This document shows positions 7,945-50,915 of a DNA stretch of 64,000 bases, one piece after another (positions within the stretch are counted from its first letter, which is position 1; the number at the start of each line of letters is the position of its first letter). The stretch covers positions 29,230 to 93,229 of the forward strand of contig CAYGZQ010000007.1 of the NCBI GenBank assembly GCA_964354375.1. Direction: 5' to 3'. Source of the stretch: an uncultured Planctomycetota bacterium. Lineage in GTDB: Bacteria > JAJVIF01 > JAPKYR01. The position numbers were made by a program, and so were the translations under genes. Below the pieces are notes generated by a model. That model saw only the letters and a list, made by a program, of their open reading frames with translations. It made no database searches and was not told the origin of the DNA.

Positions 7945-9108
7945 CTAGACCAGTTTCGTTCCGCATTTGTTGCAGAATTTCTCCTCCGGGTCGACTTGAT
8001 CGCCGCATTTCGGACAGAAGTTCGGCTTGGCTTCCCCAATGGACGGCATCTCGGGAGCGGCTTTCTCCTCCACCGCTTTCGGATGTCGCCTGCCCGCAAG
8101 CACAGCAACAAGTATCACCACGCCCGCAAGCAGAACCAGTATCACCCACCAATACAGGATCACGAATTTGATAATCAGCACCAGGACAATCGACAGCACA
8201 AGGCTTATGACACCTATCACGAATCTCAGCCCGCCACCGACGAAAGGCACGTACTTCAGCAGAAACAGAAGCGGTCCGATTATCAGGTTGAAGCCGAGGA
8301 AGAACAGAATCACACTCAACGCAGTCAGACCCCACTTGGCGGCGCTTTCGCTTGCCGCCAGATCGGCCACGAGCTCATCGGCGCTCTTGTCGGTGATGAT
8401 GAACGGCGTCCCCGACGAAATCCTGTCGCTGACCATCTCTCCCACCACGACCAGGTCGCCGACATCCTCAATCGGCAGATACTCGACAAGAAGCCATCGC
8501 GACCCGAGAGTCTCCGGACCCTTGTCCTGGCAACTCTCGAACCTCGTCAGCCTCAGGTCGGATTCCCTGGGAAGGACCTCGATCTCGCCGAGCATGAATG
8601 AAGAGGCAGCCTGGGTCTGTTCATCGAGGACCTGCCAGTCCTGGACCATGTACTGCTCCTCGACCGTTTCCTGGACTTCCTGACCGTTGACGGTGCGCGT
8701 CACAGTCTTCTGCCTTGTCTCCGGGTGCTCCCTGAACTCCTTGAGGGCCGTGTGATACCAGAAGACATCCTCTTTCGCATTGATTTCCTTGCACGCGATG
8801 TCGAAAGGCATCACCTCGACATTCTCGGGTTTCCCGTGGACCTTCAGCAGGCCGGTCTGTCCTTTGGCCTCGGCAGCGGTGAGAAGCGGCAGCGCATCGA
8901 GGGTCTTGCTGTGCTCTGCAACCCCTCTCACCGAGCACCACGCCGGAACAAAGGCCAGAGCGAACAGGATAAATCCGAGGAACATGCCTCCGATCGAGTC
9001 CATACATCCCTGCTTGGTGTCGCGGAAGCCTTTCGCCAGTGGATTCGCGCTCCCGAGCACTTTTCTGGACACTACGCGGGAACCGATGAATCTCTCTCTT
9101 GGGCTCAT
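7945..9108 (-). CDS. Membrane protein with an N-terminal signal/TM helix, a roughly 200-aa extracytoplasmic domain, a C-terminal TM bundle and a terminal double zinc ribbon.
   Basis: There is a GGAGGG RBS before the ATG at 9108. A hydrophobic stretch runs FLGFILFALAFVPAWC. The extracytoplasmic domain is followed by three or four TM helices. The C-terminus is FCPKCGDQVDPEEKFCNKCGTKLV. Confidence 0.6.
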   Translation of the reverse strand: MSPRERFIGSRVVSRKVLGSANPLAKGFRDTKQGCMDSIGGMFLGFILFALAFVPAWCSVRGVAEHSKTLDALPLLTAAEAKGQTGLLKVHGKPENVEVMPFDIACKEINAKEDVFWYHTALKEFREHPETRQKTVTRTVNGQEVQETVEEQYMVQDWQVLDEQTQAASSFMLGEIEVLPRESDLRLTRFESCQDKGPETLGSRWLLVEYLPIEDVGDLVVVGEMVSDRISSGTPFIITDKSADELVADLAASESAAKWGLTALSVILFFLGFNLIIGPLLFLLKYVPFVGGGLRFVIGVISLVLSIVLVLIIKFVILYWWVILVLLAGVVILVAVLAGRRHPKAVEEKAAPEMPSIGEAKPNFCPKCGDQVDPEEKFCNKCGTKLV

Positions 9109-9174: not shown

Positions 9175-12100
9175 TCAATATCCCGACACATACACTTCGT
9201 CGATCTGCCAGCCCGCTCTGGAAGCTCCCAGCGAGCCGACAGCAGCGGCGAACGCGAGACGGAAACCGTCCGGATTCCCCACCCATGCCGGGTCCAGGTT
9301 GCACACCGTAAGCCTCATAAACTTGGGATTCGAATCGTTGCAGAAAGCCGGCATTCCTATAAGCTCGTTGTTCCCAAGGATCACGCAGTCATACTCATTA
9401 AACCCACCGTCAAGGTCTGCCGGAAGCTCGCCCCACAGGAAGTCGGTCAGGTAGTCCTTCCCGTTGACGATATGCACGTTCCCGCCGTCCTGGCAGAACC
9501 CCGTAAGTCCGTAATCGTCGAACTCGTAAGAATGTGTGAAGACAAGTTGCAGGGTTGTGAATCCGGGAGGCACGAAGATAGGAGGCGAGAACAGCACCGA
9601 ATGCGTCAGAAGATCGTATTTGTACGTGCTTCCCGAGAACAACGGACCACGACCCACAAGGTTCGGATTCTGGTGCCATCCTATATACCAGCTTGAGGAT
9701 CCCCCGGAGTCGAAATCCTTGATCCAATCGTTCCTGTCATAGTCGGTCGCGCTGAACTCCCAATCGGCATGAAACAATGCGCCGCCTCCGACGCACCATT
9801 CGCTTCGCACTTCCGGCAGATGGAATGCGTCTTGGGCCACTACCGGGATCCAGTAGCGATTGACGTTTTCGTCGAGATAGCCCAGCTCGGAGCCGACAAT
9901 GTCCTCGACCTTGAACGAGATCGAATCGCCGGACACGTCGCCATAATAAACGTCCTCCACCCGCCGCCCGGGAGAACGGTAATCCCAAAGGTACCACTGG
10001 TAATAGACTCGATCGCCGTCGGGATCCTCGGCGGGAAGCTGCAAAGTAACCTGCTGACTCCAGCCCGGCGTCAGGTTCCCACCCTCGATCTCGTCCACCG
10101 TCGGCGGATCATTGGGCTGGTCGTCAAGGATGTACACCGAGACATCGTCGATCATCCAGCCCCTCGCGTTCGGGAAGTCCTGATTCAAGGCCGTGCTTGC
10201 CGCGAAACTGACCCTGATATCGTGTCCGGCAAATAGTGGATCGATTCTGGCTACACTGGTCGTCAGGGTATGATGGGTGCCCGAAAAAACGTCCTGGTTC
10301 AGAAGCTTGTTCTGGGTGCCCTCATATATGGGCTTCGCCCAGTACTCCCTTCCGGCTTTGATATTGGCCGGCGTGATGCCATGGGAGAGTATCTCGCCGG
10401 CCTCGGTGATCTTTACGTTTCCGCCGCTGTAGGCCTGCCAGTAGTTGGGGCTCGCGCTACCGTAAATTTGCCCGAAGTCGAAAGAATGCCTGAAGACGAC
10501 TATTCCCTGGGTCATTGCGGACGGCAGATGGATTGCCGGGCTGACGAGAATGTCGGACGACCCGTAATCATAATCGGTGTTCGCTGCGCCGAACTTCCGA
10601 CCGGTCCCATCGAGCGTATCGTCCGTCACGGCGTCGTCGGTCCATCTCGACGGTCCCTCGCCTTCCAGAGTCGCCCAGCCGATGTTGTCGCCTTTGTCTG
10701 CATCGTCCATGCTTGCATGAAAAATCTGGCCATTGACCCACACCGTATACGGATCGGCATTCACAGAAGCGTTGTAACCGTCGTCCACCTTGCACTTGAT
10801 CAGCCACTCGCCCTCCTGAATGCCCGTGGAACTGAAAATCACATCAATCGTCCCATCTTTGTTGCCCTCTCCCAGATCGACCGTGAGTATCCCCTCGGGA
10901 TGCACCACTTTCCAGTTGTATTTGAGCGGAAGAACGCTGTCGACCTTGACCTGGTATGTCACCTCATGCTTGTTTCGCGGATAGAGAGGTCCGGAAATCC
11001 CCTCGGTGATAACCGGCGGCTCGGGCTGCACATGGGGCACAAGCTCGAGCTGGTACTGCACCATCTCGGTTTCGTTCAACGTGATGACACGGATGAAATA
11101 CTGTCCGACATCGCAGACAAGCGACGTATCCAGGCTGCCGACTCCCCCGATCACTTCCGCCTGCGCGATTTTCGTCTCGGACGCATCATAGATCGTGACA
11201 AAGGTCTGCGGGGACGTGGTGTAGAGGTTCACCATCCCCTGCTCCCAGACCTCGGACCCGTTTTGAAATGAATAATAGTCCTTGTAGTCGGTCAGGCTGC
11301 CCCCAAGGCGGCATAACGATCCCTGTGCGACGTCCATCCACTCCAGCGCCTCCGCATCGTCGATCCCGTTGTTCTCATCCGCGACGCATTCCAGCTTGGG
11401 GACGTTGATTATCAGTTCCTGAAAAGCGCTGACCGGCTCGTCAGGAGCCTCGGGAAGTCCCGTGTTGTACTTCAGCCCATCGTTGGAGCCCACTCGAATC
11501 AGCACCAGATGGTCGCCGTCGTGATTGGGAATCGCCTTGCCGCTAAGGTCTATCCGATACCGGGCCTTCGTGCCGTCATCGGATACGAAATTCATCGTCT
11601 GGCCTCCCGAAAACAACTCGGGCGCAAATATTCTGACCGTATCGACTTCCGCCGCGACATTCCCGTTCGCCTTCCCCTGCCAGTCGTAAACATCAGCGTT
11701 TATGACAAGCTGTCCCTTGCCTCCCACTCCCTCCTCAAAACATAGCGTGTTCAATTCGACATGGGCGTCGACATGATACGGTTCCGACTGATTAGCCTCG
11801 ATCGGGAAATCGTCGGGGATTTCCTGCGGGGGAAACGGATCGGGATAATCCCAGCATGCGTCGACGGCATAGTTGAACACGGCCGGACAATCAGTGGCTT
11901 GTGGAGGCTTGACTCTGTATCGTCGCTTGCATGTGGTGCCGACGTACGACACTCCGCGACCGAGGTCATCATCGAGCGGGACATTCGCCATGCTCGTCAC
12001 GGGCTGATACTTGTCGAGGTAGTCGCAGAAGTACTTGTAGGGATTCACGGTGGCGGTCAGCAACTCTGTATCCTGGGTGCCTAGCTCACCGGGCACGTAG

Positions 12101-12630
12101 CCGTTCAAACCCGAGCCTGTAAACTCCCTGGGGTTCCACCAGCGCGTGTACCCGTCCGCATTCAGAAGCCTCCATTCGTCAACGTCCGATACGACAAGAT
12201 TGCCGATCTGCAGGCTGCCCGGCGTCATGAGAATCCCCTTGGCGTCGAAGCCGTACAAACTCGGGCTGTCCGGATACGGATGCGTAAAGGTGAAATCCAG
12301 CGCGAAGATCTTGTTGGGAATGTCGCTTGCCTGCCAGTCAAACCAGATGCCCACGCAGTCATAAGTGTTCAGAGGCTCCACCAGGTTGACATGGAATCCG
12401 GCCGACCTCAGCGGCGTCATCTCGACCGTCAGATTTTCGGTGTCAAGCCTTACCTCCCACAGTCCGAGGAGACGATGATGCGTCCCGCTCTCGTCGCGAC
12501 CGGCAGGGAAGCTCAACGAAGGACTCGACGGATCTCCGCGATCCGATCCTGAGCAGCCTGCCCCGACGCACCACGCAACCGCCGCCATCACCAGGATGCA
12601 TGCCGACCAAACGGCTCTTCGCTTGACCAT
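9175..12630 (-). CDS. Giant lipoprotein, family member A (1151 aa): conserved N-terminal module, a PPC-like segment and two or three MAM/jelly-roll-like modules.
   Basis: GGAGGTGA RBS. Signal peptide plus lipobox VGAGC. The N-module motifs are LLGLWEV, ADGYTRWWNP, TATVNPYKYFCDYL, FNYAVDACW and IPDDFPIEAN. It also has CRLGGSLTDYKDYYSF and repeated C-terminal modules ending GWMIDDVSVY and GWQIDEVYV. Confidence 0.8.
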   Translation of the reverse strand: MVKRRAVWSACILVMAAVAWCVGAGCSGSDRGDPSSPSLSFPAGRDESGTHHRLLGLWEVRLDTENLTVEMTPLRSAGFHVNLVEPLNTYDCVGIWFDWQASDIPNKIFALDFTFTHPYPDSPSLYGFDAKGILMTPGSLQIGNLVVSDVDEWRLLNADGYTRWWNPREFTGSGLNGYVPGELGTQDTELLTATVNPYKYFCDYLDKYQPVTSMANVPLDDDLGRGVSYVGTTCKRRYRVKPPQATDCPAVFNYAVDACWDYPDPFPPQEIPDDFPIEANQSEPYHVDAHVELNTLCFEEGVGGKGQLVINADVYDWQGKANGNVAAEVDTVRIFAPELFSGGQTMNFVSDDGTKARYRIDLSGKAIPNHDGDHLVLIRVGSNDGLKYNTGLPEAPDEPVSAFQELIINVPKLECVADENNGIDDAEALEWMDVAQGSLCRLGGSLTDYKDYYSFQNGSEVWEQGMVNLYTTSPQTFVTIYDASETKIAQAEVIGGVGSLDTSLVCDVGQYFIRVITLNETEMVQYQLELVPHVQPEPPVITEGISGPLYPRNKHEVTYQVKVDSVLPLKYNWKVVHPEGILTVDLGEGNKDGTIDVIFSSTGIQEGEWLIKCKVDDGYNASVNADPYTVWVNGQIFHASMDDADKGDNIGWATLEGEGPSRWTDDAVTDDTLDGTGRKFGAANTDYDYGSSDILVSPAIHLPSAMTQGIVVFRHSFDFGQIYGSASPNYWQAYSGGNVKITEAGEILSHGITPANIKAGREYWAKPIYEGTQNKLLNQDVFSGTHHTLTTSVARIDPLFAGHDIRVSFAASTALNQDFPNARGWMIDDVSVYILDDQPNDPPTVDEIEGGNLTPGWSQQVTLQLPAEDPDGDRVYYQWYLWDYRSPGRRVEDVYYGDVSGDSISFKVEDIVGSELGYLDENVNRYWIPVVAQDAFHLPEVRSEWCVGGGALFHADWEFSATDYDRNDWIKDFDSGGSSSWYIGWHQNPNLVGRGPLFSGSTYKYDLLTHSVLFSPPIFVPPGFTTLQLVFTHSYEFDDYGLTGFCQDGGNVHIVNGKDYLTDFLWGELPADLDGGFNEYDCVILGNNELIGMPAFCNDSNPKFMRLTVCNLDPAWVGNPDGFRLAFAAAVGSLGASRAGWQIDEVYVSGY

Positions 12631-12669: not shown

Positions 12670-15600
12670 TCACTCCACCCCGTAAAGAACGACCTCATCA
12701 ATCAGCCACCCTCTGCGTGGCACACCGGACAGGCTTGAGGACGCCGCGAATCCGACGCGAATGCTCATCGGGTCCGCCAGCCACAAAGGATCAAGATACG
12801 CGTAGGAGATCCTCATTGCAGCCGGGGCCTCGTCGTTACAGAAGGCATCCTGACCGCCAAGCAGACCACCCGACTCAAGCTGGCAATCATACGGGAAGCC
12901 TATGTCCATCTGTTCCGGGGGGTCGAACCAATGGAAATCGGTCAGGTAGTTGTCAGCCTCGACAACGTGCACGTTCCCGCCGTCATGGCACTCCGAGACC
13001 ACATCATCATCGTAGAACTGGTAGTAATGGGCGAACCCGATCATCGCTTCGCTGAATCCGGGAGGGATGAAAATCGGGGGAGTGAAAAGCACTGCGTGAT
13101 CGTCAGTCGTGTAATCGGTGTCCGCATCGGCGAACTTGTACCCACACCCGCCGAGCACCGAATCCGTCACGCTCGCACCGTGCCATGTCGAGTCGCTGCC
13201 TTCGTCGAACGCGGTATCCCACTCGGCCTTATCGTAATACGGAGTCGGGTCATCGGGATCAAACCAGAAGAGAATCCCGTTGCCCACCGTCCACGCTTCC
13301 CTCTTTATTCCCTCATGATATCCGTCTGTTACCGACACGCTGACTCGGAATCGATTGCTGTAGCCACCGGTCACGAGATCGCTGATGACGAAGTCAAGAG
13401 CGGGGGCGATCGGATCGTAGTAGATGTTCCTCACTCGAACGCCGGGATACCGGAAATCCCACAGCGACCAGGTTCTGTAAATTGCGTCCCCGTCCGGATC
13501 GGACGCCGCCATCGCGTAATGAAGAGGATCATCCATATGGGGCGCAAGGTCCCCGCCTTCCAGCGGTCCGGCATCGGGTTCCTGATTGGGAGCATCTCCC
13601 TCGACATATACCGCGACATCGTCGATCAGCCAGCCGCGGTAGTTTGAGTATTCATGTCCGGTTGTCACGGCAAAGCCGATGTAGATATCGTTTCCGGCCA
13701 TTGCCGGAGGAATGCTCGCGGCGGAGACGGTGAGTCTGAACGGATCGGAAGCCTCATTCGACCGGTAGCAGAACGCCTGCTGGTCCTCCATCAGGGTATC
13801 GCCCTGGATCAGCTGGGACCAGCATGGCATCCCTCCCGTAATCTCGGCCGGCAGAACGTCGTAGGACGGGAGCTCGGGCGCCTCCGTTATCTTCACATTG
13901 CCTCCGTCGTATCCCTCCCAGAACTCGTACCCCGGCCTCGTCTTGGCAATGTCGAGGTCGTACGAGTGACGGAAAGCGATAATCCCGTGACCCATCCCGC
14001 TCGGAAGACTCACGGGCGGGCTCACAAGGATGTCGGACGAATTGTTCGTGTAATTAGTATTCGCCTCTCCAAACTTTCGACCTTCGCCCTGAAGCAGGGT
14101 GTCCGAGGTGGCCAACAGGGTCCACGCCGTGGTTCCAGCCTGCCCCACATGGGTCCAGCCCGCATTGTCTCCAGTCGTGTCATCGTTCAAATCAGCATGG
14201 AAAATCTGACCGTTAACCCAGACATGGTATGGGTCGGCCGAGACCGGTCCCCCCACCCCGTTCGTGACTTCACAACGGATCTCTGCTTCCCCCAGGATAC
14301 AGAAATCCGAGAACTTGACCTCCAGATGACCGTTGCCGTCGCCCGGATCGGGTCCGAACACCACAAAACCCGAGTCCACGATAGTCCAGCCATACGTCAC
14401 CGGCCAGACTGAATCAACCCCGATTTCGTACAGGGTGTTCTGTGCGCATCGGGGATACTTGTATCCGCTGATTTGGCTCACGATCACCGGCGCTGAGACG
14501 TCCTGAGCGTTCCCCTTGAGATCGACGTAGTAGTAGATCGTGTCCACTTCGTTCATTGTCAGAACGCGGAGATAATAGGTCCCCGGCATCAGGTAAAGCG
14601 CGCCGAGATCGATCTGGGCCTTCCCGCCGGAAATCTCCGATTGCGTCAGCTTCGTATGGGTCGAATCGAACACGCTCAGGAAGACCATGTTCGACCAGGC
14701 ATAGAGCGTGGCTGATCCTGTAAGCCCCTTGTCTACCGGAATTTCGAAGGAGTAGTAGTCGCTGTAGTCGATCAGCTCTCCGCCAGGGCGGCAGAGAGTC
14801 CCGTAGGCGGAGTCGATGAGATCGAACGGTTCCGCAGTGGCAAAAGTGTTGTTTCCGTCCGGGCCGCATTCGAGTTCCTCGACATTGACCCAGAGCACCT
14901 GGTAGGCGCTTAACGGCTGGTCCGGAGCTCCCGGCGCAAATGAGTTGTACTTCAGGCCGTCGTTCGATCCGACCCGGAATATCACCTGATGCTCACCTGA
15001 GCGCGCGGGGTTCACGATTCCGCTCAGATCAACGGAATAGACCGCCTTGACTCCCGTGTCCTGCACAAGGCTCATGGTCTGCCCCCCGCTGAAAAGCTCG
15101 GGAGCGAAAACCCGCACCGTGCTGACCTGGTCCGCGATGTTCCCGAGCGCCTGACCCTGCCAGTCGTACACTTCGAGCGTCAACAGGAGATTTCCACCGC
15201 CACCGGTCCCCGCATCGAATCCCAGCGTGTTCACATCGGCTCTCGGAAGCAAATGGAACGCCTCCGGCTGGTTAGCCTCCATTGGGAAATCATCCGGAAT
15301 TTCTCCGGGTGGATTCGGCACCGGCGGCGCCCATGATGCGTCCACTGCGTAGTTGAAGATGACCTGGGGACCGGGGGACATCTGGAACCAGATGAAGTAC
15401 CTTCTCGTGTTCGACGATCCGGCCGTGAACACCCCCCTGCCCTCGTCATCGTCCAGACCGACAAATTCGATCAGCTCTTCGATTGGCTGCTTAAACCCGA
15501 GGTAATCGCAGAAATATTGGTACGGATTCACGGTCGCAGTCAACAGGCCCGTGTTCGCGGTTCCCAGATTGCCCGGGATATATCGCATCATTCCCGACCC

Positions 15601-16137
15601 GTGGAACTCTGTCGGGTTCCACCATCTCGTATACCCGTCGGCACTTGTCAGGCGTGTCTCGGTCGGTCCTGCGAACACAAGATTCCCAACTACCTGGGTG
15701 CCGGGAGTAATCATGATGCCCTTCACGTCGAAACCCGCAAGCTGCGGGCTCGTTGCGAAAGGATGGGTCAGCGTCACGTCCACCGTGAACTTGCCCATCG
15801 CCGGGTCGCTGGCCGGGAGGTCGATAACCGCAGCCACTCCCATGGTCGAGTTGAGTATCCCCACGACATTCATGTGGAACGCGCTGTTCCTGAGCGGGAT
15901 CATCTCTACCGTCATCTTGTCGCGATCCAGTATCGCCTCCCAGTATCCCCACAGCCCGTGCGCCGCGCCCTTCGAAGAAGAAGCCGCGGCTTGAGTCAGT
16001 GCCTGCGAATCAACGCTCGTCTCCCCGGAAGCTCCCGGGGCAACCGGAATGTCGCCGGAACATCCCGCGGCAAGAAACACCGTGGCAAGAGCGAGGAAGG
16101 GAAGAGTACTACGCGTCCAGAGAATCAGCCGTTTCAT
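12670..16137 (-). CDS. Giant lipoprotein, family member B (1155 aa), a tandem paralog of A.
   Basis: AAGGAG RBS and lipobox LAAGC. The whole protein is collinear with A: HGLWGYWEA, ADGYTRWWNP, TATVNPYQYFCDYL, FNYAVDASW, IPDDFPMEAN, CRPGGELIDYSDYYSF, and GWLIDDVAVY / GWLIDEVVLY. Confidence 0.8.
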   Translation of the reverse strand: MKRLILWTRSTLPFLALATVFLAAGCSGDIPVAPGASGETSVDSQALTQAAASSSKGAAHGLWGYWEAILDRDKMTVEMIPLRNSAFHMNVVGILNSTMGVAAVIDLPASDPAMGKFTVDVTLTHPFATSPQLAGFDVKGIMITPGTQVVGNLVFAGPTETRLTSADGYTRWWNPTEFHGSGMMRYIPGNLGTANTGLLTATVNPYQYFCDYLGFKQPIEELIEFVGLDDDEGRGVFTAGSSNTRRYFIWFQMSPGPQVIFNYAVDASWAPPVPNPPGEIPDDFPMEANQPEAFHLLPRADVNTLGFDAGTGGGGNLLLTLEVYDWQGQALGNIADQVSTVRVFAPELFSGGQTMSLVQDTGVKAVYSVDLSGIVNPARSGEHQVIFRVGSNDGLKYNSFAPGAPDQPLSAYQVLWVNVEELECGPDGNNTFATAEPFDLIDSAYGTLCRPGGELIDYSDYYSFEIPVDKGLTGSATLYAWSNMVFLSVFDSTHTKLTQSEISGGKAQIDLGALYLMPGTYYLRVLTMNEVDTIYYYVDLKGNAQDVSAPVIVSQISGYKYPRCAQNTLYEIGVDSVWPVTYGWTIVDSGFVVFGPDPGDGNGHLEVKFSDFCILGEAEIRCEVTNGVGGPVSADPYHVWVNGQIFHADLNDDTTGDNAGWTHVGQAGTTAWTLLATSDTLLQGEGRKFGEANTNYTNNSSDILVSPPVSLPSGMGHGIIAFRHSYDLDIAKTRPGYEFWEGYDGGNVKITEAPELPSYDVLPAEITGGMPCWSQLIQGDTLMEDQQAFCYRSNEASDPFRLTVSAASIPPAMAGNDIYIGFAVTTGHEYSNYRGWLIDDVAVYVEGDAPNQEPDAGPLEGGDLAPHMDDPLHYAMAASDPDGDAIYRTWSLWDFRYPGVRVRNIYYDPIAPALDFVISDLVTGGYSNRFRVSVSVTDGYHEGIKREAWTVGNGILFWFDPDDPTPYYDKAEWDTAFDEGSDSTWHGASVTDSVLGGCGYKFADADTDYTTDDHAVLFTPPIFIPPGFSEAMIGFAHYYQFYDDDVVSECHDGGNVHVVEADNYLTDFHWFDPPEQMDIGFPYDCQLESGGLLGGQDAFCNDEAPAAMRISYAYLDPLWLADPMSIRVGFAASSSLSGVPRRGWLIDEVVLYGVE

Positions 16138-16274
16138 TCCGCAACACTCCTTTGCATTCGAATTGTTTCACTAGCCGACCGCACGCGAACACCCGTTGCC
16201 TTGAGCCTGTTAACGAAACACAATAATAAGGTATAAGGTTTTGTGCCGTCAAACATCGACACACCGCGGCTTCG

Positions 16275-16667
16275 TCAGACGGCCAGGTACATCACGAGAA
16301 GCTGGGCCGCGGCCATAAGCACAGACAGCGTCCCGAGTACGATCACAAGCGGGTACAGGCTCAGCGTCCCGTACTTCCGCAAGGCCTTACGCATCATGAC
16401 CCCGATGATCGACACAATCAGCAGGAGGATATGGTAGCCCATCATGGTCCGCGCGAAATCGTCCATCGGGATCCACATGCCGGTCCTGAGCCGGGCGACC
16501 ATCTGCCAGGCCATCGCCCAGACTCCCAGCGTCACGATGAAAAGAAAAATCCCGGTGAATCTAAACAGGATCAAGTAGCCGTACGGTATCGCAGGCTCAG
16601 GAATCTCGCTTATTACTGGATCATCTATCGGACCAAACATCTCGCTTTCTGTAGAACGGATACTCAC
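16275..16667 (-). CDS. Small hypothetical integral membrane protein (130 aa, about four TM helices).
   Basis: Clean ORF co-directional with its neighbours, with hydrophobic helices throughout. Confidence 0.5.
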   Translation of the reverse strand: MSIRSTESEMFGPIDDPVISEIPEPAIPYGYLILFRFTGIFLFIVTLGVWAMAWQMVARLRTGMWIPMDDFARTMMGYHILLLIVSIIGVMMRKALRKYGTLSLYPLVIVLGTLSVLMAAAQLLVMYLAV

Positions 16668-16671
16668 AAGA

Positions 16672-17937
16672 TCACTTCGCCACGTCGGCGGGATGAGTGA
16701 TCTTCCCCCTCACGGCCGTCGCAGCGGCAACCTCCGGTCCCGCCAGGTACACCTTGCTGTCGCGGTGACCCATCCTGCCTTTGAAATTCCTGTTCGATGT
16801 ACTCAGGCAGACATCCCCCGGACCCAGGACTCCGCCATATCCGCCCAGGCATGGTCCGCAGCTCGGCGTTCCGACCGCCCCGCCCGCATCGACGATTCTC
16901 CCGATTATCCCCTCGTTCAACGCCTCTCTGAAGACCTCCTGCGTGGCCGGCGTCACCAGAACCATCGTATGATTGTCGAACGAATTGTTCCCAAGCACGC
17001 GGGCAAATCTGCGCAGGTCCTCAAGCGACCCGTTCGCGCAGCTCCCCAGGAAAACCTGATCGACCCTCACACCCTCCACTTCTCTCACGGGGTGAACGTC
17101 GGCAGGATTGTCGGGCACCGCCACCATAGGCTCGAGCTCCGAGATATTGAACGAGTGAACTCTGACATACGATGCGTCGGCATCGGGAAGCACGGGCTCG
17201 CACGGACCGTCCACGCGTCCGGAAAGCCACGACAGCACCTTCTCGTCTGGAGGGATCACCACGGTGCACGCTCCGGTCTCAGCCGACATGTTGGCGATCG
17301 TGATTCTGTCGGCAACCGACAGGTGCTCGAAAGCGCCACCCTCATACTCAAGCGCCTCGTTCATCGCACCTTCCTTGCCGAGCGAACCCACCACGCTCAG
17401 GGCGATGTCCTTTCCGCCGATGAACCGCCTCGGTTGGCCGTCAAGGACGATCTTTCTTGATTTCGGCACTTCGAGCCAGAACTCCCCGAGTGCCCACAGA
17501 GCTGCGAGATCAGTTGCCCCGACACCGTAGCCCACGGCCCCCAGGGCGCCCACGGTGATTGTGTGGCTGTCCGCGCCTGCAATGAGCATTCCCGGCCGGA
17601 CCAACCCCTTTTCCAACAGCAAAATGTGGCAGATGCCGCCCCATCCCACCTCATAGTAGTGTCCGACATCCATTTCCCTGGCGAATTCGCGCATCGACCG
17701 ACTGAGCGTGGCCGATTGGATATCCTTCGCAGGCTGGAAATGATCCTGGACCAGAACAACCTTGTCGGGATCGCGCACTTTCCCGATTCCGATCTGCCGA
17801 AAGACATTTATCGCGTGGGGGGCGGTGAGATCGTGACCCATGATCAGGTCGGGTCGGCAAGTCAGGACATCGCCGGCTCTGGCGGAGTCGACATCCGCGT
17901 GTCCCGCCAGCACTTTCTCTGTTATCGTCTGCCCCAT
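16672..17937 (-). CDS. leuC: 3-isopropylmalate dehydratase / homoaconitase large subunit, short archaeal type (about 420 aa).
   Basis: Aconitase-family motifs are present: LIAGADSHT, GSCANGS, and the cysteine ligand region SCGPCLG. Confidence 0.85.
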   Translation of the reverse strand: MGQTITEKVLAGHADVDSARAGDVLTCRPDLIMGHDLTAPHAINVFRQIGIGKVRDPDKVVLVQDHFQPAKDIQSATLSRSMREFAREMDVGHYYEVGWGGICHILLLEKGLVRPGMLIAGADSHTITVGALGAVGYGVGATDLAALWALGEFWLEVPKSRKIVLDGQPRRFIGGKDIALSVVGSLGKEGAMNEALEYEGGAFEHLSVADRITIANMSAETGACTVVIPPDEKVLSWLSGRVDGPCEPVLPDADASYVRVHSFNISELEPMVAVPDNPADVHPVREVEGVRVDQVFLGSCANGSLEDLRRFARVLGNNSFDNHTMVLVTPATQEVFREALNEGIIGRIVDAGGAVGTPSCGPCLGGYGGVLGPGDVCLSTSNRNFKGRMGHRDSKVYLAGPEVAAATAVRGKITHPADVAK

Positions 17938-17998
17938 CGTCCCGGGTGATTCGAGTACTCTACCCTAAGAGGTCATGCAAGAGCAATCCCCCCCCATC

Positions 17999-19342
17999 TC
18001 AGCGGGCGCATCCCGCAAACGACTCGCTGAAATTCACGAACACCCCCGCCAGGCACCAGGCCCAGAACAGCGCAGTGTCCAGCCGACTCCACCTGCCGAC
18101 CCTCCTTGACGACTCCGCCCCGATGACCGCCATGCTCCCAAGCGGCACAATCAGAAACAAGTGATAGAAATCGTGACCCGGAACCCAGAAGCTTAGAAAT
18201 ATCATAAGCGGCAGCACCCACAGAACGCACAGCCCGAACCACCATCGCAGCATCGGAGCCATTTTCCTCAAATTCAGAATGCCCGTCAGCCAGATCGTCG
18301 GAAGAACAATAGCGAATCCGCTGAACCAGACGCTCCGGAACAGAAGCCGGTCCGTGCGCACACCTCCGAAATAGAAACCGAGGAATGTCCTGAGATTCGT
18401 CGCGAATCCGTCCCAGGCCGATTGCGCCCAGTACTCTCTCTGATGGGCATAGAGCGTCGCGTATTTGATCAGCCCTGGAAATGTGAACTCGCCGGTCGGA
18501 CCCAGCGCAAGCGCCGCAACGATGACATAGACAAGTACAGGCGCTCCGAGCGCGATCGCGGTCATGCCCCCGAACCAGCCCGCAGAAATCCCTCGCCCCT
18601 CCCTTTTCATTGCGACCATCAGCATCAGGACCCAAACCAGGATGAAAGGAACTATGATGCTCACGATCTGATGGAACAGGATAGCGACTGCAAGCCAAAG
18701 CCCTGCCCGAATGAGAAAAGCCGGCTTGCCGTTCGATGCGAAAGCGAGAATCGCGCCCGAGGCGACCGCGAGCAGCATCACGGCGGTCGGGTACTGAGCG
18801 CCGTCCGTTGCGTACCGGAAAAAAGTGACACTGGTCGCGAGGAACACGCACCAGGGCAGTGGGAACGGACTTCCCGGCACGAGTCGAATCAGAAGCCGGT
18901 ACAGCAGAAATACCGTGGCGGCGCACACGAGTGCGTTCCACCACTGCAGGAAGGTGATTGCGCCGAGCTGGGGGACCGCCTGTCGCAACAGACGGAAAAT
19001 GGCCGCTGTAACCGGCAGATAGAACAGATGATGCGGGTTCCACAGCACCCACCATCCCGCGCTGCGCTCCCGCTCTCCAAGTCCCCGAAGCTCTTCCGTC
19101 GAAAGCCGTGGACTCACCGGCATAGATGGAGGCGGCACCGTCACGTAGAACGGGGTTCCCTCGGCGGATGCGTAATTGTGAAGATAAATCGCCCAGCCCT
19201 GAGCATCGCCGTTCGGAATCTTCGCATTGGGACACGCAAGGTAGACGACCAGGCATACGAAGCCGAGTATCCAGCCGACCAGATACTCGCGTCTCGACGG
19301 CGATCTCTGAAGTGCGCTTTCCTCCATTAGCGGTCGGGACAA
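17999..19342 (-). CDS. GT-C-fold membrane glycosyltransferase-like protein (PMT/ArnT/DUF2723-like, 12 or more TM helices).
   Basis: 447-aa polytopic ORF. The track places a TTG at 19342; the first ATG is at 19327. An Asp/Glu-containing first periplasmic loop and the helix pattern resemble dolichyl-phosphate-mannose-type transferases. Family assignment is tentative. Confidence 0.5.
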   Translation of the reverse strand: MSRPLMEESALQRSPSRREYLVGWILGFVCLVVYLACPNAKIPNGDAQGWAIYLHNYASAEGTPFYVTVPPPSMPVSPRLSTEELRGLGERERSAGWWVLWNPHHLFYLPVTAAIFRLLRQAVPQLGAITFLQWWNALVCAATVFLLYRLLIRLVPGSPFPLPWCVFLATSVTFFRYATDGAQYPTAVMLLAVASGAILAFASNGKPAFLIRAGLWLAVAILFHQIVSIIVPFILVWVLMLMVAMKREGRGISAGWFGGMTAIALGAPVLVYVIVAALALGPTGEFTFPGLIKYATLYAHQREYWAQSAWDGFATNLRTFLGFYFGGVRTDRLLFRSVWFSGFAIVLPTIWLTGILNLRKMAPMLRWWFGLCVLWVLPLMIFLSFWVPGHDFYHLFLIVPLGSMAVIGAESSRRVGRWSRLDTALFWAWCLAGVFVNFSESFAGCAR

Positions 19343-19553
19343 GACTAACCCAGCCGGAAAGCAGGCGCAACAGAAGAATCACCGCAAGGGCGCCAAGAAC
19401 ACCAGGGACACCAAGAAGACGGACAAAATGAACCTTAACAGCAGGAAAATATCTCTGAATGGGGACGAGAGGCGGCCTCATACCAGGAATCGTCGCCCGA
19501 AAGGTTGATACCCAGGCTCGCAAGCAATAGAATACCGATTCCGTTTGCTTCAG

Positions 19554-21740
19554 ATGTCTGATTCTCACAACATGTACAGGCTCAACTCCCGGATTGCGAG
19601 GTCCAGCGACGGATGTCCGGCGCATCCGTCCCACTCCCAGTATCACCTTCTCAGGCTGCTCATCGGTAGTCTTCTCGGCGGCTGGAGCGCGATGCTGGTG
19701 TTCATGCTCCTGGGATTCCTGGGATCGATCGAGTTCACCCGGTCGGGGGGGCTGGCGATGCAGTGGGTATTCGTCGGGGGATCCGTGCTCGGCATCCTGC
19801 TCGGCCTGATCTTCTCGATAATCGCTGCCGTGCTGGTCAACATGATCCCGCCGCTCGGCAGAATCCTTCACCCGCTTGCGCTGGTAAGGGCAGGTTTCAT
19901 TCTGGTAATCGTCTGGCCTCTTGCTGCCCTGGCTCCCTGGCCGTACACATCTCTCGGTTTCGTACTGGCCCCGTTCGTCGCCATACTCCTGGCCTGGCTC
20001 GGCCTGAGGGGCAACCTTCACGCCGAGCTTGTGCCGCACTCCTCGATCGGACGGCTCCTTGGTACATCCGTCGGACCGTTCCTCGCCCTTGCGCTCGCTC
20101 TGTTCATCCTCATCCCGATGGTCAACCGCGGCTTCGGCAATCCGCACCAACCCAGGCTGGTTATCATCGCTGTCGACGGTGTCGACGGTCAGCTCCTGAA
20201 CCAATTCGTGCATGCCGAAGATTCCGACAAGTATGCGAACCTCAGACAGATGGCCGACGAGGGCGGCCTCGGAATAGTCGGAGCCGTTCAGCCCCTCGTA
20301 CCCACTCGCATGTGGGCGGACCTCATGACCGGCACCGACGCCGAGACTCACGGAATCTTCGACATCCACAGCACGTCCGCCGACTTCAAGGGCATGCCGA
20401 TATGGGAGATTCTCTCGGAACACGACTACAGGGTCGGCCTGTTCCAGGTTGCCCCTCCGCATGAGAAATGGTCGGACGCCGAATTCGACATTGCCGCGCC
20501 GGGCACGTTCGAGGCGCGAACCGATCCTCTGGCTCTCGTCCTCGAAAACGTCAGGGCGGCCGGTCGAGGCGAGGGCCGCCCGAATCCCCTGCAGGCACTC
20601 TACCTCGCGTGCCTTCTTGCCAGACACGGCGTAACGCTCGAAACGATCGCCGACCTGGCAAGGGAGTATCTCCTCGAGCTTGCCACCCGACCGTCGCCGC
20701 GTCTCACGTACCAGGCTCGCAAGCTTCTCGAGTTCAGAATCGAAACCGACTGCGCTCTCGCCCTTTTGAGACAGCATCCCGTGGATGCGGCGATCCTCCG
20801 TTTCGACAGTCTCGGACCCCTGTTCTTCACGTACTGGCGATACTCGAAGGCAAACGAGTTCGGTCCGCCGCCGGAGGATGTCGACGCTTCGGTTCTTGCG
20901 GGGCTCGGACAGGTCCTGCCGGACGCTTATGTGCAGCTCGACGGCCTCGTTCGGAGGCTTGAGACATTTCGCGGCCCCGGGACTTATTTCGCCGTTGTCT
21001 CCAACCACGGAATGAGGTCCGCCACCGATCGCAGACGCCTGGATCTCCAACTGTCCCCGGATCGGCTCATCCGGGCCTGCGGCTGGGAGGGTCGAGTCGT
21101 GGGAGACTCGGGCGGCGATGCCGTCTACTTTCGGCTCAGGGAGCCGTCGACCGATTCGGACCCGCTTATCGAGCTTGAGGACCTGCTGAGGACCGCCGAA
21201 TGGTCCGCCGGAGTCGACAATTATTCCGGAAGCAGAGGCATGCGAAATCTCCTGACCACCAACCGGCGTGAGAACTACCTCGAGGTCACCATCACCTTCT
21301 CCCATGATCTGACGCGCGAGTCATGGGTCACTATGGGCGCCTGGTCGGGACCGCTTGGGGATATCCTGCTTCCGGGCGAGCCGATGAGCGGACTTGTCTC
21401 CGGCACCGGCGTTTTTCTTGTATCCGGTCCGAGTTTCAAACCGGACGCGGTCGCAAACAGCCCTGCCCTCTTCGACATAGCGCCGACCCTGCTGCATGCG
21501 CTGGGCATTGAGATTTCCCGGGAGCTCCTCGGCCGCGTGATGGATGAGATGTTCGATTCTGTATGGCTCAGCAAGCATCCGGTCAGGTTCATCGACAGTT
21601 ACCATCCGCCCCGGCCTGCAGAACCCGAGCCGGGCCTCCAGCCGTCGACCCAGCCTCCCGAGGCGTTTCAGTATTCCGTCCCCGAGCCCCAGACCCCCGA
21701 GGAAATCCACTACTCCCCCCCGGCGCCTGTTGATTTGTAG
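19554..21740 (+). CDS. Membrane-anchored alkaline-phosphatase-superfamily protein (type I phosphodiesterase/nucleotide pyrophosphatase-like) with a Pro-rich C-terminus.
   Basis: After four or five N-terminal TM helices comes LVIIAVDGVDGQ, the metal-binding motif of the AlkP core, then a roughly 450-aa soluble domain. The start is uncertain: ATG 19554 or TTG 19545. Confidence 0.55.
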   Translation: MSDSHNMYRLNSRIARSSDGCPAHPSHSQYHLLRLLIGSLLGGWSAMLVFMLLGFLGSIEFTRSGGLAMQWVFVGGSVLGILLGLIFSIIAAVLVNMIPPLGRILHPLALVRAGFILVIVWPLAALAPWPYTSLGFVLAPFVAILLAWLGLRGNLHAELVPHSSIGRLLGTSVGPFLALALALFILIPMVNRGFGNPHQPRLVIIAVDGVDGQLLNQFVHAEDSDKYANLRQMADEGGLGIVGAVQPLVPTRMWADLMTGTDAETHGIFDIHSTSADFKGMPIWEILSEHDYRVGLFQVAPPHEKWSDAEFDIAAPGTFEARTDPLALVLENVRAAGRGEGRPNPLQALYLACLLARHGVTLETIADLAREYLLELATRPSPRLTYQARKLLEFRIETDCALALLRQHPVDAAILRFDSLGPLFFTYWRYSKANEFGPPPEDVDASVLAGLGQVLPDAYVQLDGLVRRLETFRGPGTYFAVVSNHGMRSATDRRRLDLQLSPDRLIRACGWEGRVVGDSGGDAVYFRLREPSTDSDPLIELEDLLRTAEWSAGVDNYSGSRGMRNLLTTNRRENYLEVTITFSHDLTRESWVTMGAWSGPLGDILLPGEPMSGLVSGTGVFLVSGPSFKPDAVANSPALFDIAPTLLHALGIEISRELLGRVMDEMFDSVWLSKHPVRFIDSYHPPRPAEPEPGLQPSTQPPEAFQYSVPEPQTPEEIHYSPPAPVDL

Positions 21741-21755
21741 TTATGTAGCCCGGCA

Positions 21756-22188
21756 TTTCCTTTGCCGGGTTTGCCTGTATTCTATTCCCGTCCCGGCATT
21801 TCCAGAGGCTATCTCGAAACTCAGTGAACTGGTGACAAAGGAGTTGCATCGGGAGGGCGAGGCTCCTGCCGAGCCGCACTATCCCAGCGGTTACGGCTCA
21901 GCGAGAGCTTCGCCCTCCCGAATCTGGCGGAACGTTGGGAGTTTTAAGCCAGCCTCTTCCTTTGCCGGGTTTGCCTGTATTCTATTCCCGTCCCGGCATT
22001 TCCAGAGGCTATCTCGAAACTCAGTGAACTGGTGACAAAGGAGTTGCATCGGGAGGGCGAGGCTCCTGCCGAGCCGCACTATCCCAGCGGTTACGGCTCA
22101 GCGAGAGCTTCGCCCTCCCGAATCTGGCGGAACGTTGGGAGTTTTAAGCCAGCCTCTTCCTTTGCCGGGTTTGCCTGCATTCTATGCC
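21756..22188. repeat. Perfect tandem direct repeat, 200-bp unit, about 2.15 copies.
   Basis: Copy 1 (21759-21958) and copy 2 (21959-22158) are identical base for base. A third copy starts at 22159 and diverges after about 30 bp. The unit contains internal inverted repeats (cgggagggcgaag...cttcgccctcccg and cctttgccggg...cccggcaaagg). Confidence 0.85.
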
Positions 22189-22215
22189 CGGCAAAGGAGA
22201 TGCCGGGCTACTCGC

Positions 22216-24537
22216 TCAGCCCATGGCGAGACCGAACACGGCGGCGAAGATCGGACCGTCCGGTTCAATGCTGAACCAGACGTGTATTTGGTAGTGTTCA
22301 GGGTCCACATCGATGCAGGCAGGATAGCCTGGGATATCAAGCAGGCCGGCCCAGGACGCGCCTGTCTGATCGAAAGTCTCGATGCTCCATGTGGCGGCGC
22401 CCTGTTCCAGGACAACAACCCAGTTGTACGCGCCGTAACCGCCCTTGCTGGTCGGCATAACGGCGATGTCCCTGGGGGTTCCGTGGAATTCGTTGACGGT
22501 AGTAAACGGCAGATTCAGCAGCCCTGTGTTGTCGGTTGATACAACGCCGAAGCATTCCAGCGCAGGAGGTTCGGTTTCCATGAACCAGCAAATCAGGTCC
22601 ATTGAGCCTGAGACGCCCTGAGGGTCGGAGTCCAGCGCGAACCTGTCAAGATGCTCGATATCCACTTTGCCGTCGCCCGGTCCCGCCGGCACAAGGGACC
22701 CGCTGATATAGTCGACATCGCCGCTGAACGGGTTGCCCGTGAAGCCATACTGATAAACTCCCAGGATCACCGTGACCTCGGGATCCGGCTCCACGCCGGC
22801 GTCGGGATCGTTCACCTGGATCCAGTATATCTTTGCGTTCTTGACGCTGTCGGCCCAGTTCGCGGCTGTGTCGACGAACCGGAAATACCCCAGTGTCGGA
22901 TCCGGCATCCCTATCTGCATCGGCAACTGGCCGCTTTGGCTGTAGACCTCATTGAAGAAGAAGGCGTAGTCGCGCTTCAGACCGCCGAGGAATGTCGGCG
23001 ACTTCGCAGCAGAGATAGTGGATGCGACAAACTGTCCAAACGGGCAAAGCTCGAACCTGCCTAGTGTTTCGGGCGCCCCGTACAGGTCCAGTTCCGTGTA
23101 CCCGAAGAAACCTCCCAGCGTCGTCGCATGAACGGCGCTCTGGTAGTCAAGATCGTACTTGTACAGCATGTAATCGTCGGCAAAGAAATACACTCCCTCC
23201 ATCGAGCCTCCTCCCACGACCGAGATCTCCTTCAACACAGTCTCAGGCTGCGTCGGCAGGATTTTGGCGGTCACGAGATCCCATTTCAAAGGAGGCACCC
23301 AGCTCACCAGCGTCTGGAAGCGATGATAAGCGCCGACAACAGCACCGGACGGACCGAAGAACATGGAGTAACCGTCCTGAGTGTACTTTTCATAAGTCTC
23401 GACAGTGATCAGGCATTCCTTGATACCGTCGGACTCCAAAGCGTCGGGCGCAATCTCAGCCGTGTACGTAGAGTACACCGGATCGTCCGGTCCGCCGCCG
23501 CTTCCCGACACGACAGCCGCAGTGACCGGCGAACCGACTATACCCGGCGCGTCAATCACCACCCGCTCAATCTCATCGGGGCGCCACGTGTACACGTTGA
23601 TGTCCAGGGAGAGTTTCCCGCCCGTTCCGAGACCTTCCAGCCAGTACAGCGTGTTTTCCTTCTCGATGACCTCGACAGCGTAGCCCTCGGGCGCGTTGGC
23701 GGCCGTAGGGAAGTCGTCAGGTACGGTCGGATTGTCCATGGTGCTCGGGGGCGCCCAGCATGCATCGATCGCGTACTGAAACCGAAGCCAGTCAGCCGGA
23801 TCGTCGCCGAAGCTGATTTCGTAGTGGCGACGATTCGAGGAACCCGCGGAGAAGGCTCCCCTTCCCCCATTCGGCACGGTTGTGACGGGATCGTTCAGGC
23901 CCAGGCCGTCCGCGAAATACTTGTATCCGTTCACCGTCGAAGTGAAAACCCCCGCTCCGCCTTTCGAGCCAATGAGACCCTGCTTGAAGCCGAAAATCCC
24001 CGTGCCGGGGAACTCCTTCGGATTCCACCAACGAGTCAACCCGTCCGGATTCAGAAGCCTCGGCTCGCTGTAGGAGGGGAAGATGAGCGAGATATCGCCG
24101 AACGGCAGGTCCGATCCCGGCGTCAGGACAATTCCGCGAACATCGAATCCGGAATACTGATCCATGCCCGGAAACGGATGGTTGAGAATGACATCCACGC
24201 CGACGTAGTTCTGGGACTGGTTGATTACGAGCGTCCCCGAATCGAAGGTGAGTCCGGACAGAGCCGGGGGCTCCAGAAACCCCAGGGCGTTGAGATGAAA
24301 ATCCGCCCCCCTGACCGGCAGCACCTCGATCCTGCCGACGCTTTTCTGTATCGCGATGTCCCAGAGTCCCCAGAGGCATCTGCTTGGTGACGCCGTGACC
24401 GACGCAGCGGCATCGGGCGAAACCGGGCTGCCGTTGTGCGGAGCGACGGCGTCACCCGACCCGCATCCGAGCAGGTACGCGCTCAGGAAAACGGCTGCAA
24501 CCCATATTGAGTGTCCAGGCTTTATAGACATAGTCAT
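22216..24537 (-). CDS. Giant lipoprotein, family member C (about 773 aa from the ATG at 24537).
   Basis: Lipobox LLGCGSG. The N-module motifs are CLWGLWDIA, PDGLTRWWNPKEF, TSTVNGYKYFADGLG, FQYAIDACW and VPDDFPTAAN. The C-terminal half is divergent. Confidence 0.75.
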   Translation of the reverse strand: MTMSIKPGHSIWVAAVFLSAYLLGCGSGDAVAPHNGSPVSPDAAASVTASPSRCLWGLWDIAIQKSVGRIEVLPVRGADFHLNALGFLEPPALSGLTFDSGTLVINQSQNYVGVDVILNHPFPGMDQYSGFDVRGIVLTPGSDLPFGDISLIFPSYSEPRLLNPDGLTRWWNPKEFPGTGIFGFKQGLIGSKGGAGVFTSTVNGYKYFADGLGLNDPVTTVPNGGRGAFSAGSSNRRHYEISFGDDPADWLRFQYAIDACWAPPSTMDNPTVPDDFPTAANAPEGYAVEVIEKENTLYWLEGLGTGGKLSLDINVYTWRPDEIERVVIDAPGIVGSPVTAAVVSGSGGGPDDPVYSTYTAEIAPDALESDGIKECLITVETYEKYTQDGYSMFFGPSGAVVGAYHRFQTLVSWVPPLKWDLVTAKILPTQPETVLKEISVVGGGSMEGVYFFADDYMLYKYDLDYQSAVHATTLGGFFGYTELDLYGAPETLGRFELCPFGQFVASTISAAKSPTFLGGLKRDYAFFFNEVYSQSGQLPMQIGMPDPTLGYFRFVDTAANWADSVKNAKIYWIQVNDPDAGVEPDPEVTVILGVYQYGFTGNPFSGDVDYISGSLVPAGPGDGKVDIEHLDRFALDSDPQGVSGSMDLICWFMETEPPALECFGVVSTDNTGLLNLPFTTVNEFHGTPRDIAVMPTSKGGYGAYNWVVVLEQGAATWSIETFDQTGASWAGLLDIPGYPACIDVDPEHYQIHVWFSIEPDGPIFAAVFGLAMG

Positions 24538-25061
24538 TTTTGGCTGCCCCCGGGACCGCGTAATCCGCCCGAGTATATAGATACGCTTGCCCCGCCTCTG
24601 CTTAGAATTCCCGGGAACCGTCTCTCCGATTGATGTCAAAGAGACTACCCGGTCCGTACGCCGGCGTCAACCATCCAGGCCGTTCCCGGGGGACGGACAG
24701 TACCCAACGCCCTTGTCCTTAATCGGGTTATAAGGCATTATATCAGGTTTAATTGGACGGCGGCAATCACGAAACTGGGTCCACAGCTATAATCATCTAT
24801 CAATGCCTATCAATTGATAGTTTACAAGCGAAACTTGAATGTATAAGTCTTTTTGGCGCAGAATTCACCCGAAAAAACGCAGGGCGAAACATCGTCGCGG
24901 CCCGCTCCCAATGCACGATATGCCTGGTTGCGGATACGAATGCCTCCCGTCCCGGCGGGAAGTGCCCTTGACTGAGAACACGCGACATAGTAAATGATTA
25001 CTGACTATTCGGATTGCCTGCACTAACAGTCTAATCTTCAAAGACTGGGAAGGGGAGAGAA

Positions 25062-32595: not shown

Positions 32596-32664
32596 GTGGG
32601 GCAGGCTTTCCAGCCTGCCATTCAATCTGGATTCAGAGGCGACAGGCTGGAAAGCCTGCCCCAC
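32596..32664. repeat. 24-bp inverted repeat with one mismatch and a 21-nt spacer, in the divergent intergenic region.
   Basis: Arm 1 is gtggggcaggctttccagcctgcc. Arm 2 is gacaggctggaaagcctgccccac. Confidence 0.7.
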
Positions 32665-47961: not shown

Positions 47962-48011
47962 AACGGCAACTCCCATGACCCTGAATAGATAACCTGATGC
48001 AATATGGAGCA

Positions 48012-50777: not shown

Positions 50778-50915
50778 GGTGGACCTCCGAGATTTGAACA
50801 GCCATTCACTTAGATGTGTCGTGCATAGGAAATAATAGAATAACACAGCCGGGAAAACAAGAAAGCGGCGCATTGAGAGTCGCGCCGCTGGGGGAGAGCT
50901 GGTTTGAGCAATACG

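Follow-up and report, generated by a model that had tools for sequence, protein, structure and literature searches.

What is a perfect 200-bp tandem repeat doing between two convergent genes, and through which events could it have arisen? We asked this of positions 21757 to 22190 of a window of 64,000 nucleotides (the whole stretch of DNA analysed; contig CAYGZQ010000007.1, positions 29,230 to 93,229). The window comes from an uncultured bacterium whose relatives are found in freshwater-sediment-type metagenomes. The repeat appears to be a genuine, very recent tandem duplication within an expanded REPIN, that is, a pair of inverted repetitive extragenic palindromes (REPs) with a short spacer. 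It is non-coding, and the kind of system is already known. We consider it likely that the region is a cluster of selfish palindromic DNA, nested and non-coding, where the two genes meet. Its history would be stepwise: a small duplication in an ancestral REPIN, the arrival of a 153-nt element (X) in a REP loop, and the tandem duplication of the resulting block.

An earlier reading of the window, made without database searches (the sequence-only reading), had described two perfect 200-bp copies and a partial third one in a convergent intergenic region. Direct comparison of 21759-21958 with 21959-22158 gives 200 identical bases out of 200. Identity at a period of 200 starts at 21757 and runs into the partial copy up to 22190, with sole mismatches at 22178 and 22186. 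Tandem Repeats Finder delimits the same array (21757-22190, period 200, 2.2 copies, 99% matches). The map of flanking open reading frames (ORFs) places it between 19545-21740 (+) and 22216-24639 (-). All three descriptions are correct. The GC content of the array is 58%, and its GC and skew are unremarkable. This is not a CRISPR array, with repeats of 24-48 nt and unique spacers: the period is 200, the entire unit is identical and there are no unique spacers.

An outer inverted repeat of 25 nt brackets the array. Its arms, GTAGCCCGGCATTTCCTTTGCCGGG at 21745-21769 and CCCGGCAAAGGAGATGCCGGGCTAC at 22187-22211, are 96% complementary. Each arm is a small palindrome, CCCGGCA/TGCCGGG, with GTAG in front. 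Both have the form of a REP, defined as an imperfect palindrome of 20-40 nt whose GT(A/G)G head is unpaired. From left to right, the array consists of an intact REP(+), a 22-nt spacer, a split REP body (CCCGGCATTTCC and TTCCTTTGCCGGG) with X between its halves, the same 22-nt spacer, the same split body with X, a 17-nt spacer and REP(-). The features of the locus, with its two flanking genes, are as follows.

21745..21769, + strand: REP(+), left arm of the ancestral REPIN; GTAG head at 21745-21748, then the imperfect palindrome CCCGGCA-TTTCCTT-TGCCGGG.
21770..21791, + strand: spacer sp1, 22 nt, TTTGCCTGTATTCTATTCCCGT, orthologous to the spacer TTTGCCTGCATTCTGTTCCCGT of the REPIN in a close relative.
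21792..21803, + strand: left half of headless REP body copy 1, CCCGGCATTTCC, with 12-nt identity to 21749-21760.
21804..21956, + strand: element X copy 1, 153 nt (154 with T21957), located in the split loop of the REP and bordered by TCC/TTCC.
21849..21921, + strand: core hairpin of X copy 1, 73 nt; arms 21849-21876 and 21894-21921 (28 nt, 24/28 complementary), loop 17 nt.
21957..21969, + strand: duplicated TTCC and right half of headless REP body copy 1, TTCCTTTGCCGGG.
21970..21991, + strand: spacer sp2, identical to sp1.
21992..22169, + strand: second split REP body with X copy 2, identical to copy 1; X at 22004-22156, core hairpin at 22049-22121.
22170..22186, + strand: spacer sp3, 17 nt, TTTGCCTGCATTCTATG; it has the C of the relative and lacks 5 nt of TCCCGT.
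22187..22211, - strand: REP(-), reverse complement GTAGCCCGGCATCTCCTTTGCCGGG, right arm of the REPIN; its end lies 4 nt from the stop of the 807/773-aa gene.
19545..21740, + strand: convergent gene upstream, for a membrane protein of 731 aa with a weak match of Phosphodiest type; its stop lies 4 nt before the head of REP(+), and its orthologue is a 682-aa gene on contig L151 of the relative.
22216..24537, - strand: downstream convergent gene, 773 aa from ATG 24537 (807 aa from TTG 24639), without a Pfam domain; orthologue on contig L014, 90% nucleotide identity.

The 200-bp unit is the right half of a REP, a spacer, the left half of a REP and X. The REP orientations read + + + -, and both inner copies are headless and interrupted. 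Each split REP with its X is predicted to fold as one nested rod (z = -4.2). The sequence-only reading had placed two inverted repeats within the unit. A stem is indeed present in the position of the larger one, given as about 13 bp around about 45 nt. Its size was misjudged: the arms have 28 nt and the loop 17 nt, and the left arm reads CGGGAGGGCGAGG and not ...GAAG. The other proposed pair, cctttgccggg/cccggcaaagg, does not exist inside the unit. The sequence cctttgccggg occurs once per unit, and its partner occurs only once, at 22187-22197, outside the repeat. There it belongs to the right arm of the outer 25-nt inverted repeat.

The outer arms can be compared with a close relative. The LeuC of the window (16672-17937) has a counterpart at 97% identity, and contigs from four assemblies of this relative (L151, L152, L153 and L155) share 92% nucleotide identity with window positions 16000-21798. 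In all four, the orthologous site holds just GTAGCCCGGCATCTCCTTTGCCGGG, the 22-nt spacer TTTGCCTGCATTCTGTTCCCGT and CCCGGCAAAGGAGATGCCGGGCTAC. This is a plain REPIN, two inverted REPs with a short spacer, and these two REPs are also what encloses the expanded array of the window. Neither X nor the 200-bp repeat is present at this site in any of the four assemblies. The REP 25-mer (0-1 mismatch) occurs 8 times, at three sites, in 21 kb of L151, and six of these copies flank a gene for a REP-associated tyrosine transposase (RAYT). More precisely, this is a 172-aa gene at L151 4222-4740, about 1.4 kb from the orthologous REPIN. Three exact (+) REPs precede it, and two (-) and one (+) follow it. 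Its product scores 128 bits against the NCBIfam model NF047646, REP-associated tyrosine transposase (cutoff 80), and matches Pfam Y1_Tnp as well.

Nunvar et al. 2010 (PMC2817692) described RAYT genes flanked by inverted REPs, whose features are a palindrome, its non-complementary middle and a GT(A/G)G head. In that work the commonest type of REP cluster was the inverted doublet. We identify the outer arms as REPs because the relative has both the empty site and a RAYT flanked by the same REP, which match these defining traits. Judged by this comparison, the arms represent an ancestral REPIN of GTAG-headed REPs, whose cognate RAYT was found only in the close relative. The suggestion of a REP-like repeat in the sequence-only reading was right in this respect.

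The edge of the REPIN coincides with a synteny breakpoint (22212-22216). Homology to L151 ends at 22216 (L151 ~6118), and homology to L014 begins at 22215 (L014 8323). In the relative, the convergent gene pair of the window is split between different contigs, beside two different RAYT genes and REP clusters. The second RAYT has 189 aa and scores 87 bits; its flanking hairpin differs from the 25-nt REP. In two distant relatives (L019 and L020) the convergent pair is kept, and its 60-nt intergenic region has a plain terminator hairpin.

Several minor features of these relatives concern the same repeats. On both sides of the 189-aa RAYT lie copies of another hairpin in inverted orientation, CGACACAAGC...CTCGAAGACTCGCT...GCTTGTGTCG (L014 10232-10285 and 10876-10930). 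A related hairpin lies in L016 (8331-8891), in a 560-nt intergenic region full of more REP-like repeats (GGAGCGCATGCGTCCCGCCTGC, GGTGCGCCGAATTTCCAGTCGGCATC). In L151, the GTAG head of a REP provides the TAG stop of a PrcB_C-domain gene (...DIYPCK*, 4022-4025). A similar C-terminal fragment (...DVYACK*) is present at L014 ~8551-8557, followed by a loop-less REP, GTAGCCCGGCATGCCGGG, 230 nt past the 773-aa orthologue. Finally, a 30-nt tandem repeat starting in a REP tail (GCCGGGATTCTGATATACTTTACGAAGCGA) lies upstream of the 172-aa RAYT gene (L151 4134-4221). It has three copies in L151 (JGI) and two in L152 and L153 (ENA). This difference is either real copy-number variation or a disagreement between assemblies. 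The proposal of a very recent duplication, or of a repeat that expands and contracts, fits such REP-adjacent behaviour.

Element X has its own anatomy. Its ends, 21804-21822 (AGAGGCTATCTCGAAACTC) and 21939-21957 (reverse complement AGAGGCTGGCTTAAAACTC), agree at 15 of 19 positions. On either side of X lies a duplicated target of 3-4 nt, TCC/TTCC, taken from the REP loop. Terminal inverted repeats, a short target duplication, a length of 153-154 nt and an ORF without homologue are structural features of a MITE (a miniature transposable element with inverted repeats). This anatomy suggests that X is MITE-like and mobile.

The core hairpin of X belongs to a wider family. The 25-nt family motif is GGGAGGGCGAGGCTCCYGCYGAGCC, and the left arm of the hairpin is an exact copy of it, GGGAGGGCGAGGCTCCTGCCGAGCC, which is also exact in 10 IMG/VR contigs. 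The right arm has four mismatches, three of them at the polymorphic positions of the family (11, 17 and 20). As in the inverted pairs of the family, the GGGAGGG end of the arms is outermost, and the loop of 17 nt lies within the family range. With Y at two positions, the motif is found on contigs of at least 120 GTDB species. Among the matches listed, the majority are Planctomycetota (Pirellulales, Gemmatales, Isosphaera, Phycisphaerae and Kuenenia). Long contigs carrying the motif are labelled Verrucomicrobiae (463 kb), Ignavibacteria (1.76 Mb), Acidobacteriota (206 kb) and Alphaproteobacteria (198 kb), and it is also present on Fervidibacter and Chthonomonas contigs.

We counted 239 approximate copies of the motif in 830 kb of fetched motif loci. 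Neighbours within 150 nt form 68 pairs with the GGGAGGG end outermost, none in the opposite arrangement and 27 in tandem; 67 further copies are solo. Conservation ends sharply at the arm ends; neither the loops, of 7-41 nt, nor the flanks are related, and the family hairpins show no target duplication. By a crude ORF map, 54% of the copies fall in the 13% of sequence outside ORFs. Hairpins of the family lie within larger palindromes in 9 of 53 cases, against about 2.7 expected (p = 0.013). Across 64 family hairpins, positions 11, 17 and 20 vary independently between the arms, with no compensatory pairs. It means that the sequence is conserved and not the pairing, as expected of copied DNA and not of a selected RNA fold. 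Some loop subfamilies, for example GCGAGCCAGGGG..., reappear in different metagenome-assembled genomes.

With these elements, the history of the locus can be proposed in four steps. The ancestor, as the comparison with the close relative shows, was a REPIN, two inverted 25-nt GTAG-headed REPs with a 22-nt spacer. In the second step, 43 nt of REP body and spacer would have been duplicated; the probable cause is slippage between CCCGGCA heptamers, with which the REP body begins in either orientation. In the split copies, the left half (CCCGGCATTTCC) keeps the 12-nt identity to the intact REP, and the full ancestral spacer including TCCCGT precedes it. In the third step, X may have landed in the loop of the new REP body by transposition, leaving the target duplication of 3-4 nt that is present on both of its sides. 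In the last step, the 200-nt block between flanking direct repeats of 29-34 nt (TTCCTTTGCCGGGTTTGCCTGYATTCTAT) became the two identical copies observed. The route could have been replication slippage, unequal recombination or amplification by a RAYT. Nunvar et al. (2010) proposed such RAYT-driven amplification for modules bounded by directly repeated REPs. Precedents for parts of this history are the known tandem REP clusters and REP-targeting insertion sequences, compared below, and the 30-nt repeat of the relative.

The spacers give an order to these events. Both sp1 and sp2 carry a derived T; sp3 has the C of the relative and a 5-nt deletion. Because the spacers have diverged while the 200-nt copies show zero differences, the duplication of REP and spacer would be older than that of the 200-nt block. 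The odd perfect repeat thereby becomes a dated sequence of events in the evolution of a REPIN, with the empty site of a near relative as reference. If the cell is affected at all, this is probably confined to very stable hairpins at the 3' ends of both convergent transcripts.

Several observations weigh against this history. The REP occurs at this one locus only in the 64-kb window, and no RAYT gene was found there (tblastn with the two RAYTs, and a HUH...Y..NP regular expression). With a single REP locus in the window, membership in a REP/RAYT system is established through the relative and not within the same genome. No intermediate of the 43-nt duplication was observed, and this step should be read as a proposal. 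X was also sought elsewhere, as the sequence-only reading had advised for the whole unit. No other copy of either was obtained: none in the rest of the window, no match to an X 24-mer in GTDB species genomes, and none to either X end in IMG/VR. An X 20-mer gave three chance matches with dissimilar flanks in JGI metagenomes. The 200-bp unit had no match in plasmids, and BLAST against more than 150 fetched loci recovered hairpin arms and not X. Neither several sites nor a parent insertion sequence (IS), as expected for a MITE, came out of these exact-match scans of collections, which do not include the source genome. Since X was found nowhere else, its mobility is argued from the anatomy of a single site. 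Exact look-ups of three window products in the assembly collection returned no record, and there is no second assembly of the strain against which the copy number could be compared.

This last point matters for the possibility of an assembly artefact. In that case, the genome would have one or another number of 200-nt units, and the assembler would have circled a repeat loop. The perfect identity of the copies is what a cycle in the graph would yield. Likewise, the assemblies of the relative disagree on the number of 30-nt repeats, and tandem counts in such data are either soft or truly polymorphic. However, the junction at 21939-22022, from the end of X through the T-variant spacer to the start of X, is impossible in a one-copy genome. 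With a single copy, the only sequence after the end of X would be sp3, the C-variant that is 5 nt shorter. The two contexts share only 21 identical bases, below normal final k-mers. Because a junction with the T-variant spacer cannot come from one copy, it would imply at least two. We regard an artefact as unlikely.

The other readings give the unit a function, as protein or as RNA. The sequence-only reading had noted a 66-codon ORF in each copy, with a GTG start after a ribosome binding site and a TGA stop overlapping the next start. This could be extended to a pair of small protein genes that overlap, with 66 and 80 codons, and whose translation is coupled by the GTGA. The open frames 21832-22034 and 22032-22274 exist, and the GTGA at 22032-22035 was read correctly. 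The binding site was not: the GTG (21832-21834) comes first and AAGGAG (21838-21843) follows within the ORF, with none upstream. The 66-codon product has no homologue among 5.8 billion proteins even at E <= 10, and its exact look-up was empty. The ORF is also absent from the orthologous site of the close relative. Since 200 does not divide by 3, the two ORFs do not end alike: the second continues through the REP and then, antisense, into the adjacent gene. Two palindrome arms, when translated, give the core of the peptide. The 66-codon ORFs arise as a by-product when these arms are read through, and we see practically no chance that they are coupled genes. Annotators should be warned that ORFs of 66-80 codons here are palindrome read-through. 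A selected structured RNA, whether a stabiliser of the 3' untranslated region, a terminator module or the small RNA of the sequence-only reading, would make the duplication functional. The predicted structure of the whole region is very stable (-251 kcal/mol, z = -9.8), and the site is downstream of two convergent genes, where REPs reportedly affect mRNA 3' ends. The same structure is equally a property of double-stranded palindromic DNA. At gathering thresholds, Rfam 15 finds only two tRNAs, elsewhere in the window. The best Rfam scores of the region are about 25 bits against cutoffs of 100, they belong to microRNA models and are typical for a generic hairpin. The scan found no promoter-like or intrinsic-terminator-like site, and a simple bidirectional terminator was rejected, as the scan showed no T-run after a stem. 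The relative with 92% identity does not have the insert, and the family arms lack compensatory changes. A selected RNA seems to us very improbable, and the cluster of nested selfish palindromes remains the preferred explanation.

The cross-phylum hairpin family is the sole unusual part of the locus; apart from this core of the insert, the locus is ordinary for REP clusters. The core of X might represent an undescribed family of tiny hairpin elements that move between phyla and insert preferentially in the loops of existing palindromes. The phyla concerned would be Planctomycetota, Verrucomicrobiota, Acidobacteriota, Armatimonadota, Ignavibacteria and Proteobacteria, plus the lineage of the window. 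We hold this as a tentative possibility, and one that we rather doubt. REP families are usually lineage-specific. Unlike REPs, this hairpin family has identical 25-mers that span phyla. It resembles elements of the IS200/IS605 and RAYT types in its lack of target duplication, its sharp arms and its occasional nesting in palindrome loops, and it may fit a single-strand mobilisation of HUH/Y1 type. However, its arms carry no GTAG or CGTC tag, unlike those types, and a search of about 830 kb around the 239 copies (tblastn with the two RAYTs and the same regular expression) yielded no Y1 transposase. Rfam has no model for the hairpin. A literature search found neither the motif string nor any account of such repeats in planctomycetes.

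If such mobility were true, it would explain the nesting at three levels, a REPIN, X in its REP loop and the core hairpin in X. In that case the window would capture one moment in which palindromes have colonised palindromes and local amplification has followed. With arms identical in at least 120 species of several phyla, the transposase and the route between phyla would have to be found, and the family merits separate study. In one fetched locus (L025 3819-4654), a 157-aa ORF lies between inverted motif copies that have a GTAGC/GCTAC extension on the inner side. It was considered as the transposase of the motif and rejected as an ordinary ORF. From its sequence, it appears to be VOC/PhnB-like. 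It may be a passenger gene that was captured, or chance may have brought two solo copies together.

REP/REPIN-RAYT systems are known from previous works (Nunvar et al. 2010, PMC2817692; Bertels & Rainey 2011, PMC3116915; Ton-Hoang et al. 2012, PMC3333891). The window REP agrees with them in its 25 nt, its GTAG head, its 7-bp palindrome and its non-complementary middle. Its form is close to that of the Pseudomonas mendocina REP GTAGCCCGGATGCAATCCGGG. The inverted doublet with a short spacer, the extragenic position at gene 3' ends and the RAYT of the closest relative, flanked by inverted copies of the same REP, also agree. The differences lie in the host, the copy number and the insert. The host is an uncultured lineage and not a proteobacterium. 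The copy number of the REP looks low: the 64 kb of the window have a single locus, and the 21 kb of the relative have 8 copies, most of them around the RAYT. Finally, this REPIN was expanded by a foreign insert, with no RAYT seen in the window. REP/RAYT systems are hereby extended to an uncultured lineage of freshwater sediment.

Two other known arrangements are close to this one. Di Nocera et al. 2013 (PMC3733652) reported REP units reiterated in tandem with flanking DNA, in clusters of variable copy number between genes. The array shares this organisation with such clusters and with BIME-2 (bacterial interspersed mosaic element) of E. coli. It is not itself a BIME of the E. coli type. In BIMEs the REPs alternate in orientation at a regular short spacing, whereas the three bodies of the window are head-to-tail and the last REP alone is inverted. 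The unit of 200 nt also differs from BIME-2 because each inner REP carries the 153-nt insert. On the other side, Tobes & Pareja 2006 (PMC1525189) described IS of five families that insert at fixed points in REPs and make direct repeats of 2-6 bp (among them ISPsy8, ISPpu9/10, ISRm22 and IS1397). X resembles these in its fixed point in the REP loop, the TCC/TTCC on both sides and its inverted ends. Unlike them, it encodes nothing, and no parent IS or second copy was found.

The window has other intergenic palindromes. The one at 983-1103 has 121 nt and is imperfect. That at 2173-2234 is perfect over 62 nt (CCTCACCCCCTTGCCCCCTCTCC...), and the third, at 32596-32664, has 69 nt and GTGG-headed arms (GTGGGGCAGGCTTTCCAGCCTGCC). 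The arm words of the 62-nt and 69-nt palindromes are exact in 7 and 3 IMG/VR contigs, respectively. Since these words recur there, several dispersed low-copy palindrome families coexist here. The window also has adjacent paralogous large genes, 9175-12630 with 12670-16137 and 45184-48015 with 48012-50873, at about 63-65% nucleotide identity over about 900 nt. They belong to a protein family with many paralogues in the lineage.

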